IMG/VR virus record: IMGVR_UViG_2671180458_000016 | Location: 1 to 42,985 of that record | Strand: one strand, 5' to 3' | From: a virus | Lineage: Duplodnaviria; Heunggongvirae; Uroviricota; Caudoviricetes | Length of the DNA: 42,985 nt | Shown here: in pieces, positions 1 through 3,000 of the stretch | How positions within the stretch are numbered: position 1 is the stretch's first letter | Layout of the letters: every line of letters starts with the position of its first letter | Made by a program: the position numbers

Positions 1-3000
1 TTAGTCTTTATCTGCCGGACTTAACGTCACAGAAGAGAGATAATTCAGCAGGGCGATATCGTTCTCGACACCCAGCTTCATCATCGCAGATTTCTTCTGG
101 CTACTGATGGTTTTAATACTGCGGTTCAGCTTTTTAGCGATCTCGGTCACCAGGAAGCCTTCCGCAAACAGGCGCAGAACTTCACTCTCTTTTGGCGAGA
201 GACGCTTGTCACCGTAACCACCAGCACTGATTTTTTCCAACAGGCGAGAAACGCTTTCCGGGGTAAATTTCTTCCCTTTCTGCAGCGCGGCGAGAGCTTT
301 CGGCAGATCGGTCGGTGCACCTTGTTTCAGCACGATCCCTTCGATATCCAGATCCAATACCGCACTAAGAATCGCCGGGTTGTTGTTCATGGTCAGAACA
401 ATAATCGACAGGCTTGGGAAATGGCGCTTGATGTACTTGATTAAGGTAATGCCATCGCCGTACTTATCGCCAGGCATGGAGAGATCGGTAATCAACACAT
501 GCGCATCCAGTTTCGGCAGGTTGTTGATCAGTGCTGTAGAGTCTTCAAATTCGCCGACAACATTCACCCACTCAATTTGCTCAAGTGATTTGCGAATACC
601 GAACAAGACTATCGGATGGTCATCGGCAATAATTACGTTCATATTGTTCATGTACTTGTACCTATGTATTAACTATTTGATTTTAAAAATATATTCTATG
701 CTTTGTTTAGTCGTTGGGGCACCTGTGGGACATAAGTACATAGCTTTCTGTTTAGTACTTCTACCTGGGACTGGTTATTGTCTTTCATCCATGCACCGTA
801 AACATTGTAAACCATCTGGGCATTCGCATGTCCCATCTGGTTGGCTATGAAGTTTGGATTTGCTCCGGCAGTTAAAGCCCAGCAAGCATAAGTATGCCGA
901 GACTGATACGCTTTTCTATGGCGAATTTTTGCCCGTTTTAATGCAGATTCCCATGTTCTGTTGATGGATGTTACGGCATAATGAACTCCTGAGTTACCTG
1001 TGCGATCTAATATCTGAGGATTGAAAACAAAGCTGCATGAGTGAGTGCTTGTCCGGCCATACTCTCGCAGCTTTACTTCTATCTGATATTGTTTACCAAG
1101 CCTGGTTAATGTCGCCTGATTTTTTAATACGTCAATTGCTGGCTGTATGAGTTGTATTACCCTGTTTGTTCCTGCATCTGTTTTGGGTAGTGTAAATTCC
1201 TTTGTCTGAGTGTAATTCCTTTTGACGGTCAAGGTACCCGCTTCCAGATCGATATCCTCCCATGCCAGCCCACACAGTTCGCCATGCCGCATCCCGGTAT
1301 ATACAGCCAGCGACCAGAAATTTTTAGTTTGCTGGTGGTGGCACGCATCAATCAGTCTGGCAAACTCATCTTTTGTTAGTGGATCGGGAGGTGTTTTCGC
1401 TCTTTTCAGTGATGGAAGCTCACTGAAAGGGTTTTTGCCTATATACCCATTGTTTGCCGCAAAACGGAACATCCCGGAGATAATTGTCATATAGCTATTT
1501 ACAGTAGGTACACTACGACCTTTAATAGGCTTCCTCTGATTTTTTCCTGGCAACTGATATCCCGTTAATAATTCTTTACGAAAAATGAGAACATCTTCCT
1601 GTGTAATTGATGATGCCAGTTTGTTCCCTCCAAGGCAGTCAAGGCAATTTCGGATAGCTGATTTGTATCTGACCATGGCATTTGCTGTTATTTCCATTTT
1701 CTTAAGCTCAAGCCATTTTTCCGAAAGTGCCTTAATGGTTATCTCTTTTTTTCCCAGACCAAAATGTTTCAGGTTAGGGGAATTAGGGAACTGCGCGGCG
1801 TAGTCGAAGCTCCCCATTCTGATTGCAAAACAAACGGAAGTGCGAAGTTCACCTGCGATCTTCCGGTTTTTGGCGGTGTCAGGAACACCGAGGTTTTCTC
1901 TGACACGTTTGCCGTTATAGTGAAACCATATGCGGAGTGATCCGCCATGGTTTTCAACGCCTGTCGGGTATGATGCGTTACTCATTAAACCTCCCAGACG
2001 TCCAGGAGCATTAACAGGTTAACCGGAACTTGCATTTTTGGCACCTGGTTGTTTCTGGTTTTCGATCCAGCGCATAATTTCCTCAATGTTGTATACACAT
2101 TCACTGAAAGGCCCGGGCTCTCCTTCTGCTGCGTAATGACGGTATTCTTTCCCCAGTAACCAGGATTTTTTTCTTGCTCTGGCAATGGTTCCTGATTTCA
2201 GTCCAGTTGCGGCAATAAGGGGTCTTTCTGTGCACCATTTGCTGGGCGTTATCTGATAGATGATTGTTTCCATTCCTGACTCACACTATCTTCAGGCCAC
2301 GGCAGTGGCACCACACGTCAAACATTCGCTTTACAACTTCACGGCAGTAGAAGCCGTGAGCATCTCTGGTTAAATCGTATCGGTACCCGTATCTGAGTCG
2401 TATCCATATTTCAAACTCGCGATTCACGACTTATTCTCCTGCTGTCTTTATGCCAGTTCATTCGGTTGCGCTGGGGCCCTGGCCTTCCGTGGCCTGTATT
2501 TGCGGCGTTTTCTGGCTTCAATGCGTATCTTTGTCACCCTGACTGGCTTTGGTTCGTGCCGGAACACTTTGTTTCTGATATTACGCCGTGTATTCATCAT
2601 CCAGATAAAACGCTGGGTATGGTCGCATCCGTCATCAACGGTAATTACTGTGCGGACCAGTTCATCGTTAATATCAACCATTTCACCCATTCACTGAGCC
2701 CTCATACGCGAATTTCGTGGCTTCCATCAGTTGCGTCCATACCCATTCAAGAAATTGTGCGTTTTCTCCTGAGCGGTCATATTCATCGACGCTGCGGGGC
2801 TTGATGGTCGCCAGTAGTGGCACAATCCGGTACTTCATCTGTTCGGTTAACTTGTCCGGTACAAGTCGCCAGCCGTTATATTTCGATGGAACATGGTGGT
2901 ATTCAGCCAGGAAGCGTCGTATATCGTTTTTCATTTCCTCGCATGAGTTCTGATCATGAAGTGCAGCGGAAAGCCAGCGTCCGATATATTCAGGGATTCG

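Follow-up and report, generated by a model that had tools for sequence, protein, structure and literature searches.

A stx-negative lambda-type prophage integrated at the start codon of rcsB: anatomy of the attachment site and possible consequences for rcsB expression

The stretch of DNA analysed here (the window) comprises the 42,985 nucleotides of the IMG/VR virus record IMGVR_UViG_2671180458_000016 and begins with a bacterial gene. Positions 1-651 hold, on the minus strand, an intact rcsB coding sequence of 216 aa (ATG at 649-651) with Response_reg and GerE domains, the product of which carries the RefSeq accession of K-12 RcsB, WP_001061917.1. Exactly 44 nt (652-695) separate the rcsB ATG from the stop codon (TAG, 696-698) of int, which lies on the same strand at 696-1985 and encodes a lambda-type tyrosine integrase of 429 aa. 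This arrangement bears out the initial annotation, in which a prophage had been placed directly upstream of rcsB. The integrase has an N-terminal Arm-DNA-bind_2 domain (PF12167, residues 7-70, E = 5.8e-24) and a C-terminal Phage_integrase domain (PF00589, residues 203-396, E = 2e-20), both from Pfam, and aligns with solved tyrosine recombinases including those of Tn1549 and lambda. The alignment to Tn1549 Int suggests R233, K268, R363, H386 and Y396 as the active-site residues; the first His of the HxxR motif falls in a gapped loop of that alignment (IRHRKAYQSRH), so its placement is ambiguous. Upstream of int lies xis (2019-2273, minus strand), encoding an 84-aa excisionase of the DUF1233 family (PF06806, E = 5.6e-27; RefSeq name xisR), and both genes are intact.

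Annotation of near-identical genomes assigns positions 655-42985 to the prophage body, and the element continues beyond the window end. The left early operon occupies the minus strand and ends at int; after it come a LexA-family repressor gene (7997-8704), replication genes and Q. The position held by stx in Stx phages is taken by hok/sok and hsdM/hsdS, downstream of which are lysis genes, terminase, portal, an N4-gp56-type capsid gene, tail genes and YadA-like adhesin genes. In the annotation of the near-identical genomes the interval from Q to the lysis genes contains hok, a repeat-containing hypothetical gene, hsdM and hsdS, and stxA and stxB are absent from it; despite its 933W-like body the prophage is outside the Stx-converting class. 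The window differs from the genome of E. coli JNEC-KY174 by 10 SNPs and one repeat-length difference across 43 kb, and the right junction, which lies beyond the window, was read from this near-identical genome and from related ones. Rfam and tRNA scans returned no match at the junction. Positions 652-1985 very probably represent attL and the integrase gene of a lambda-type, 933W-like, stx-negative temperate prophage, an assignment that forms part of the main reading given below.

In uninterrupted E. coli genomes rcsD lies immediately upstream of rcsB, as the initial annotation states, and more than 5,300 complete E. coli genomes align to the window only through base 654; the K-12 alignment ends after GTA at 652-654, three bases beyond the rcsB ATG. 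A TAA is indeed present on the minus strand at 669-671, 17 nt before the rcsB ATG and in the frame of the int stop, as had been reported. The proposal that it is the residual rcsD stop was ruled out by the K-12 alignment and by the intact rcsD at attR: since uninterrupted E. coli homology stops at base 654, the triplet is phage DNA, and it overlaps the end of an IHF-like site. The rcsD stop of K-12 is a TAG located 16 nt upstream of the rcsB ATG, and at attR of JNEC-KY174 rcsD retains both this TAG and the native 16-nt spacer. Wherever the right end was readable in near-identical and related genomes, everything upstream of rcsB position -3 (the native Shine-Dalgarno sequence, the 16-nt spacer and the whole of rcsD) stands at the other end of the prophage. 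In JNEC-KY174, where about 61 kb separate attL from the right junction, rcsD at the far end is full length (890 aa), 99% identical to K-12 and unchanged at its C-terminus, and the suggestion of an altered RcsD C-terminus has to be abandoned.

The crossover was located by a three-way comparison of attL in the window, attR in three lysogens (JNEC-KY174, 2012EL-2448 and S792) and attB in K-12. An 11-bp segment, TTGTTCATGTA (644-654), is identical in attL, attR and attB, and its flanks switch among the three exactly as the Campbell model specifies; the matching core sought at the far prophage end is found at attR of all three lysogens. On the minus strand the core reads TAC-ATG-AAC-AA, that is, three leader bases followed by the ATG of rcsB, its second codon and two bases of the third. 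The comparison places the crossover within the first codons of rcsB and not, as first annotated, at or in the 3' end of rcsD. Recombination by Int occurred at TTGTTCATGTA, which holds the rcsB start codon; these 11 bp are also present in the phage attP, so that integration re-creates the rcsB reading frame without change. The strand-exchange overlap is probably the 7-bp TTGTTCA (644-650), its position being drawn from the inverted repeat CAAGTAC(G/A) found on both sides in the reconstructed attP. As a sequence pattern this attP, CAAGTACG-TTGTTCA-TGTACTTG, is a near-perfect 8-bp inverted repeat around 7 bp. It was reconstructed and not observed, because an exact 30-nt query gave no match to a free-phage attP in IMG/VR and no record in the GenBank phage collection contained the full-length int, matches there spanning the int 5' end and xis only.

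The 44-nt spacer together with the last int codons would form the P' arm of attP. A putative phage core-type (C') half-site, AGGTACAAGTAC (652-663, minus strand), now lies in the rcsB 5' leader, and in seven lysogens, which represent about five genera, it is kept as AGGT(A/G)CAA(A/G)TA(C/T). Beyond it, a putative IHF site, AATCAAATAGTTA (WATCAANNNNTTR; 670-682, minus strand), matches the consensus exactly at a position like that of H' in lambda attP, and its ATCAA and TTA parts are retained in most of the seven variants. Two putative arm-type Int sites, TGGGGCAC (715-722) and TGGGACAT (726-733), lie 11 bp apart on the plus strand within the last int codons, where they encode ...VPQVPQ...; across the seven variants these octamers are nucleotide-invariant save for one T/C difference in the second, while the adjoining codons vary. 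A third candidate in this arm, TGGGACAT at 828-835, is in inverted orientation (minus strand). The motif TGGGRCAT occurs only twice in the 43-kb window, both times in the P' arm, and at attR of JNEC-KY174 two further arm-type copies, again 11 bp apart, are located 125-136 bp across the core. Taken as a sequence pattern, TGGGRCAY is present in five copies at most 190 bp from the core, spread over both arms. From this arrangement we tentatively assign the arm-type repeats (TGGGRCAY), the core-type site and the IHF site as attP elements.

The C' half-site also provides a substitute Shine-Dalgarno sequence, AGGU, 8 nt before the rcsB AUG. Predicted anti-Shine-Dalgarno pairing is -3.7 kcal/mol for the phage AGGU against -3.9 kcal/mol for the native AAGGU, with equal predicted accessibility, and the core-type site may double as a replacement rcsB ribosome-binding site of about native strength. 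Conservation of the AGGT could stem entirely from its role as an Int core site.

The major rcsB promoters have been located within the rcsD coding region (Wall et al., bioRxiv 10.1101/2020.01.14.906271), and PrcsB lies within rcsD in Salmonella (PMC3572086); rcsB, some 61 kb from rcsD in the lysogen, would be separated from these native promoters and therefore reliant on phage-derived transcription. A consensus scan of positions 560-2500 gave a single hit, the sigma-70-like candidate TAAACA-18-TAAAAT (680-709, minus strand; 9/12 consensus matches), which overlaps the int stop and the IHF-like site and has a -10 element ending 28 nt before the rcsB ATG; hits were fewer than in shuffled sequences and this one is not statistically significant. 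Position-weight scoring places a -10-like hexamer, with its end 28-31 nt upstream of the ATG, among the three best in 5/5 variants scored, and the -35 region shows no conservation among variants. The conservation of the -10-like hexamer may simply reflect the overlapping IHF site, and because of this overlap no promoter is claimed. Between 9300 and rcsB, a simple scan of the minus strand found no terminator-like site save a 5-bp hairpin at 1945-1932, so some read-through into rcsB is likely.

Our preferred reading, to which we assign a probability of about 0.8, is that the locus has the anatomy described above, that RcsB is still made in the lysogen at an altered, phage-determined level, and that excision would restore rcsDB. 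Of the initial annotation, the location of the prophage upstream of rcsB stands, and the effect on expression that it raised as a possibility is a reasonable suggestion. Transcription of rcsB in the lysogen would come from phage DNA only, the likely sources being low-level transcription running on from the leftward xis-int operon, a sigma-70-like promoter of low strength over the IHF site, or both. After induction of a lambda prophage, gal undergoes escape synthesis from pL, and the present locus resembles that case in that, at attL, int is followed directly by a host gene on its own strand. Upon induction here, strong antiterminated pL-type transcription would likewise pass through int into rcsB, given that no terminator is predicted between the two genes. 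The effect of escape would be proportionally larger than for gal, since only 44 nt part rcsB from int and none of its own promoters remains. Precise excision would restore the rcsDB operon.

A more far-reaching version, which we regard as doubtful, is that a lambdoid integrase lineage across the Enterobacteriaceae has specialised on the rcsB start codon and has brought RcsB under phage transcriptional control, with a low level in the promoter-poor lysogen and an antiterminated, pL-driven rise upon SOS induction, and hence lysogenic conversion by promoter replacement. If this were true, the traits altered in LEE-negative STEC by promoter replacement would be capsule, motility, curli and acid resistance, perhaps together with the response to superinfecting phages, which might become resistance.

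Possible, though on the unlikely side, is that the insertion is neutral, the phage arm supplying a constitutive promoter and a Shine-Dalgarno sequence that keep RcsB near normal, and the site being a harmless conserved landing pad like tRNA-gene or icd 3' ends. Such an outcome would agree with a start codon rebuilt like for like, an equivalent Shine-Dalgarno sequence, the recurring -10-like hexamer and the repeated use of the site across genera, which suggests a low cost. However, the -35 region is unconserved among variants, the candidate promoter may be occluded at the IHF site that it overlaps, and, whichever applies, transcription starting at the rcsD promoter or at those inside rcsD no longer reaches rcsB; prediction is, moreover, the sole basis of this explanation.

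The same loss of native promoters, which lie inside rcsD, could instead make the insertion polar. With those promoters 61 kb away and the early operon repressed, rcsB would be effectively off until excision, giving a phenocopy of an rcsB mutant (motility and curli up; capsule and acid resistance down) in the manner of the comK or mutL active-lysogeny switches. Near rcsB, the sole promoter-like match is weak and lacks significance, and with both int and xis intact the prophage could excise. Variants of rcsB with lost function are reported to be widespread among STEC and to be adaptive there (Carter et al. 2012, cited in PMC10562709 and PMC9144400), and insertion of a prophage in mlrA is a known disturbance of a biofilm regulator, with a comparable regulatory effect in O157:H7 (PMC5931665). 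Against this, a Shine-Dalgarno sequence of native strength and good spacing is kept in the phage arm of every variant, each of the five scored variants shows a -10-like element some 28-31 nt ahead of the ATG, and the 7-kb leftward operon reaches rcsB without a terminator-like site in the simple scan. Furthermore, rcsB is intact in all lysogens examined, from about five genera, though the insertion is perhaps too recent for decay; overall, we consider effective silencing of rcsB unlikely.

An insertion in the 3' end of rcsD, in which the TAA at 669-671 would be what remains of the rcsD stop, or its replacement, and RcsD might have an altered C-terminus, would fit the adjacency of rcsD and rcsB in uninterrupted genomes and the near-native spacing of that TAA (17 nt against 16 nt), but it retains next to no probability, given that homology to uninterrupted genomes ends at base 654, that the native TAG remains with rcsD at attR, that the 890-aa lysogen RcsD has an identical C-terminus, that the TAA sits in phage DNA at the end of a conserved IHF-like site, and that such an insertion is already refuted for 14 complete genomes.

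The preferred reading describes a system close in plan to that of lambda. As in lambda Int/Xis/IHF, Int combines arm-binding and tyrosine-recombinase domains and xis lies immediately upstream; as in lambda attP, a short identity core is present, and putative inverted core-type half-sites flank 7 bp, with a candidate IHF site by C' and putative arm-type motifs repeated at a distance of about 11 bp on either arm; and int is likewise the last gene of the leftward early operon, facing host DNA at attL. The differences are that the integrase belongs to the Arm-DNA-bind_2/DUF3596 subfamily and has weak similarity to lambda Int (E about 1e-4), that attB lies inside the start of a gene, in contrast to the gal-bio intergenic region used by lambda, and that the P' arm is compressed, as a result of which the putative arm-type sites fall within the int coding sequence.

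The closest characterised integrases are of the IntR type, found at yecE and yehV/mlrA (VT1-Sakai/Sp15, Stx2_12E129_yecE, YYZ-2008), with 71-73% amino acid identity. Compared with the yecE-site integrase P0009, the first 100 residues are 97% identical, whereas the core-binding and catalytic regions are 57% and 71% identical; across the int 5' end and xis, nucleotide identity to IntR-type relatives is about 90%. The prophage shares with IntR-type Stx and related prophages a 933W-like body and STEC hosts, but its target is rcsB and not yecE or mlrA, the reading frame of the target is preserved where theirs is split, and hsdM/hsdS take the place of stx.

Phage 21 and e14 (at the icd 3' end) and the phages of tRNA genes carry att sites that duplicate the end of a host gene, which stays intact, as summarised in Campbell-type surveys. 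Such 3'-end insertions leave promoters untouched, whereas here it is the 5' end that is duplicated (start codon plus substitute ribosome-binding site), with the coding sequence kept and the promoters lost. SpyCIM1 at the 5' end of mutL in Streptococcus pyogenes and phi10403S in Listeria comK act as active-lysogeny switches. Like these, the present element parts a host gene from its expression signals, which precise excision would restore; unlike them, it preserves the rcsB reading frame and a ribosome-binding site, and the likeness is a resemblance only, read from a static integrated state.

Together with GadE, RcsB governs acid resistance. It also governs colanic-acid capsule, flagella, curli and biofilm (PMC10562709, PMC9144400, Wall et al., bioRxiv 10.1101/2020.01.14.906271, and in part general knowledge), and in STEC natural variation of rcsB has already been connected with stress fitness. 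Removal of the native promoters from an otherwise intact rcsB would amount to a clean promoter swap made by nature; the prophage is found in clinical LEE-negative STEC (O146:H21, O128ab:H2, O75:H5), and the site is also occupied in Salmonella and other genera. If RcsB differs between lysogen and cured strain, the prophage would represent a new route to the retuning of a global envelope-stress regulon, and rcsB would join the prophage sites to be checked in STEC typing; if RcsB is unchanged, the locus is one more attachment site, with an unusually neat rebuilding of start codon and ribosome-binding site.

Among 5,426 complete E. coli genomes, int and both junction types, including the junction of phage with rcsD, occur in the same 14. 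The lysogens belong to serotypes including O146:H21, O75:H5 and O128ab:H2, the last of which is also represented by a strain free of the prophage (PMC13534694). The main text of that paper, which reports JNEC-KY174, does not mention rcsB, and in the main text of open-access articles neither rcsB nor rcsD was found named as a prophage attachment site.

The exact attL pattern had no match in the one-genome-per-species GTDB contigs, and protein-guided searches were therefore used for other genera. Integrases 73-81% identical were found 41-44 nt upstream of rcsB in Trabulsiella, Cedecea, Kosakonia, S. enterica, S. salamae and one metagenome contig; attR junctions were read in E. coli, the contigs of other genera being too short on the phage side. 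The junction is no chance feature: attL and attR are base-identical in the three E. coli lysogens read, and the junction recurs elsewhere with diverged integrases. Other integrases, 69-74% identical, occupy different sites: yecE, fliE, or a position next to ABC-transporter genes and a DUF3828 gene. Percent identity was rejected as a predictor of the site, the 73% identical S. salamae integrase being at rcsB and a 74% identical one at yecE; no identity threshold serves because the N-terminal domain of the integrase is mosaic.

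The window opens with rcsB (1-651, minus strand; 216 aa, beginning MNNMNVIIADDHP...), which is separated by a 44-nt spacer (652-695) from an integrase gene on the same strand (int, 696-1985; 429 aa, stop TAG at 696-698), followed by an excisionase gene (2019-2273; 84 aa, DUF1233). The int product carries the Arm-DNA-bind_2 and Phage_integrase domains. The layout in the initial annotation, including a TAA at 669-671, is accurate since the ORFs, stop positions and domains found agree with it. Its proposal that this TAA is the residual rcsD stop proved wrong. When window 1-760 was searched against 5,426 complete E. 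coli genomes, 5,374 matched, and nearly all matches stop at base 654, three bases past the rcsB ATG. In the alignment to K-12, ...ATTGTTCATGTA is common to both sequences and is followed by complete divergence; on these alignments, therefore, the TAA is phage DNA. As an rcsD stop it is ruled out, lying beyond the end of host homology and shifted by one base relative to the native stop, which in K-12 is TAG, 16 nt from the rcsB ATG.

The right junction lies outside the window and was read from JNEC-KY174 (NZ_AP045170.1), an E. coli lysogen with a prophage of ~61 kb that differs from the window by 10 SNPs and one repeat-length difference and diverges only past base 42961. The last 24 window bases (42962-42985) diverge after 28 kb of 99.97% identity, so the source genome is a related but different strain, or a mosaic breakpoint lies there. 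The right prophage end of JNEC-KY174 reads ...CAACAAGTACG-TTGTTCATGTA-ATAGGCTACCTTG-CTA, in which CTA is the rcsD stop TAG read on the opposite strand. Its rcsD encodes 890 aa with 99% identity to K-12; residues 464-890 are identical and the C-terminus is therefore unchanged. RcsD is untouched by the insertion. Hence, neither an insertion at or in the rcsD 3' end nor an altered RcsD C-terminus, both suggested initially, is correct, as a full-length rcsD with its own stop is found at the far prophage end.

Integration directly upstream of rcsB, as first proposed, is real and precise. Comparison of the left junction (attL) of the window with the right junction (attR) and the empty K-12 site (attB) gave an 11-bp common core, TTGTTCATGTA, at 644-654. 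Read on the coding strand (TAC-ATG-AAC-AA), it covers three bases of the leader, the start codon and second codon of rcsB, and two bases of the third codon. JNEC-KY174, 2012EL-2448 and DETEC-S792 share base-identical junctions. Mechanistically, this is ordinary Campbell-type integration, carried out by a lambda-type Int. The reconstructed phage site (attP), CAAGTACG-TTGTTCA-TGTACTTG, is an inverted repeat flanking a 7-bp spacer, as would be expected of core-type sites around an overlap region. The int-side 12 nt adjoining the ATG, AGGT(A/G)CAA(A/G)TA(C/T), are kept in all seven variants compared (int-rcsB junctions of lysogens from about five enterobacterial genera). In two E. coli-type prophages whose integrase is 100% identical (IMG/VR contigs L007 and L008), AGGTGCAAGTAC replaces AGGTACAAGTAC in the core-type site adjoining rcsB (position about 4328), the same A/G polymorphism as in Trabulsiella.

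A putative IHF site matching the consensus exactly (AATCAAATAGTTA) is located at 670-682, and two putative arm-type octamers, TGGGGCAC (715-722) and TGGGACAT (726-733), lie 11 bp apart in the last int codons. Across genera, the octamers are constant at the nucleotide level save for one T/C position, and the codons beside them vary. In the whole 43-kb window, TGGGRCAT has just two occurrences, both in the int-side arm; two more octamer copies, also 11 bp apart, are found 125-136 bp across the core on the other side. Judged by these motifs, the junction appears to have the layout known from lambda (core, H' and arm-type sites) in compressed form, with the P' arm overlapping the int end.

Phage 21 and e14 at icd, as well as tRNA-gene insertions, rebuild the 3' end of the target gene and leave its promoters alone. 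The rcsB prophage likewise rebuilds its target but, unlike these, at the 5' end, and therefore the gene is intact but its promoters are lost. In its position the insertion resembles elements located in comK or at the 5' end of mutL, a likeness seen in the integrated state.

The native leader CAAGGUAGCCUAUUAC-AUG becomes AUAGGUACAAGUAC-AUG in the lysogen, with predicted anti-Shine-Dalgarno pairing of -3.7 kcal/mol (native, -3.9) and predicted accessibility of the initiation region of 0.49 (native, 0.50). According to Wall et al. (bioRxiv 10.1101/2020.01.14.906271), the major rcsB promoters lie within the rcsD coding region and the rcsD promoter itself contributes minor read-through; the arrangement described for Salmonella is the same (PMC3572086). 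All of these are now ~61 kb away, with the prophage between them and rcsB. At attR of JNEC-KY174 (5126-5152 of L004, a stretch beyond the window end), the native rcsB Shine-Dalgarno and ATG stay beside rcsD and head an 8-codon ORF, MNNVLVAF-stop, that extends into phage DNA; the native promoters also precede this ORF, and transcription from them would continue into the right arm of the phage. On the opposite strand, just inside that arm (L004 5104-5116), there is a hairpin with a T-run.

Remaining rcsB transcription could come from a sigma-70-like match, TAAACA-18-TAAAAT (709-680), or from early-operon read-through. The former is a weak candidate that does not reach significance relative to shuffled sequences and lies over the IHF consensus; a -10-like hexamer occurs at about the same position in 5/5 variants scored. 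A simple scan of the 7-kb leftward early operon detected no minus-strand terminator except one 5-bp hairpin inside int. In lambda, pL transcription crosses attL into gal after induction, and by analogy prophage induction should drive transcription into rcsB. We infer, on good grounds, that in clinical Shiga-toxin-producing E. coli the global regulator RcsB now depends on expression signals of phage origin, and the moderate interest of the site rests on this.

Both the int gene (≥99.6% nucleotide identity) and the phage-rcsD junction were detected in the same 14 of the 5,426 complete E. coli genomes. Published serotypes for four of these lysogens are O146:H21 (two strains), O75:H5 and O128ab:H2 (PMC13534694); the second O128ab:H2 strain of that study is not among the 14. 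Integrases of 73-81% identity occupy the same position upstream of rcsB, with rcsC on its far side, in Trabulsiella guamensis, Kosakonia cowanii, Cedecea sp., Salmonella enterica serovar Reading, S. salamae and one metagenome contig; the spacer is 44 nt in all except S. salamae (41 nt). Among characterised integrases, the nearest are those of the IntR type from Stx and other lambdoid prophages inserted at yecE and yehV/mlrA. Integrases of similar identity also occur at yecE (74%), beside DUF3828 and ABC-transporter genes (72%) and beside fliE (69%). Overall identity is no predictor of site, since the arm-binding domain at the N-terminus is mosaic, with 97% identity to the yecE-site integrase P0009 compared with 57% and 71% in the core-binding and catalytic parts, respectively. 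Our literature search found no paper naming rcsB as a prophage attachment site; as far as checked, this attB had not been described before. Members of one lambdoid integrase lineage use it in hosts from several enterobacterial genera.

With Q, short-tail genes and a capsid gene of the N4-gp56 type, the phage body resembles that of 933W and Stx phages, and a scan of the prophage found no tRNA genes. Downstream of Q (about 13500-17740), hok/sok (sok Rfam match, 13961-14135) and type I hsdM/hsdS (methyltransferase and specificity subunit) are present instead of stx, with no hsdR annotated nearby. Just upstream of hsdM is a perfect heptanucleotide repeat, (GACCAGC)x9 (14469-14531). With nine copies, an ORF of 707 aa (14460-16583) opens at the ATG at 14460 and continues across the repeat, in frame with HsdM; the 511 extra bases (73 more copies) in JNEC-KY174 shift this frame. 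Located where an Stx phage would have stx, the repeat may be a contingency (phase-variable) locus. A full-length STnc100 sRNA family match (18090-18296; Rfam, 167 bits) lies just upstream of a SASA-family esterase gene (18510-20447; 645 aa). The late/accessory region has two YadA-like trimeric autotransporter genes (35389-36510 and 41504-42700), with a second hok/gef gene (about 41012-41152) ahead of one of them. The genome sequences of strains with this prophage come from a 2026 study (PMC13534694) that dealt with Eib-type adhesins and chain-like adherence. Beyond the window end, in its right part (covered by L004 and a further stretch, L003), the JNEC-KY174 prophage encodes a giant LPD5-domain protein (2,791 aa; L003 8940-17315) and an S6-family (SPATE) serine-protease autotransporter (1,330 aa; L004 606-4598), whose gene ends ~540 bp from attR.
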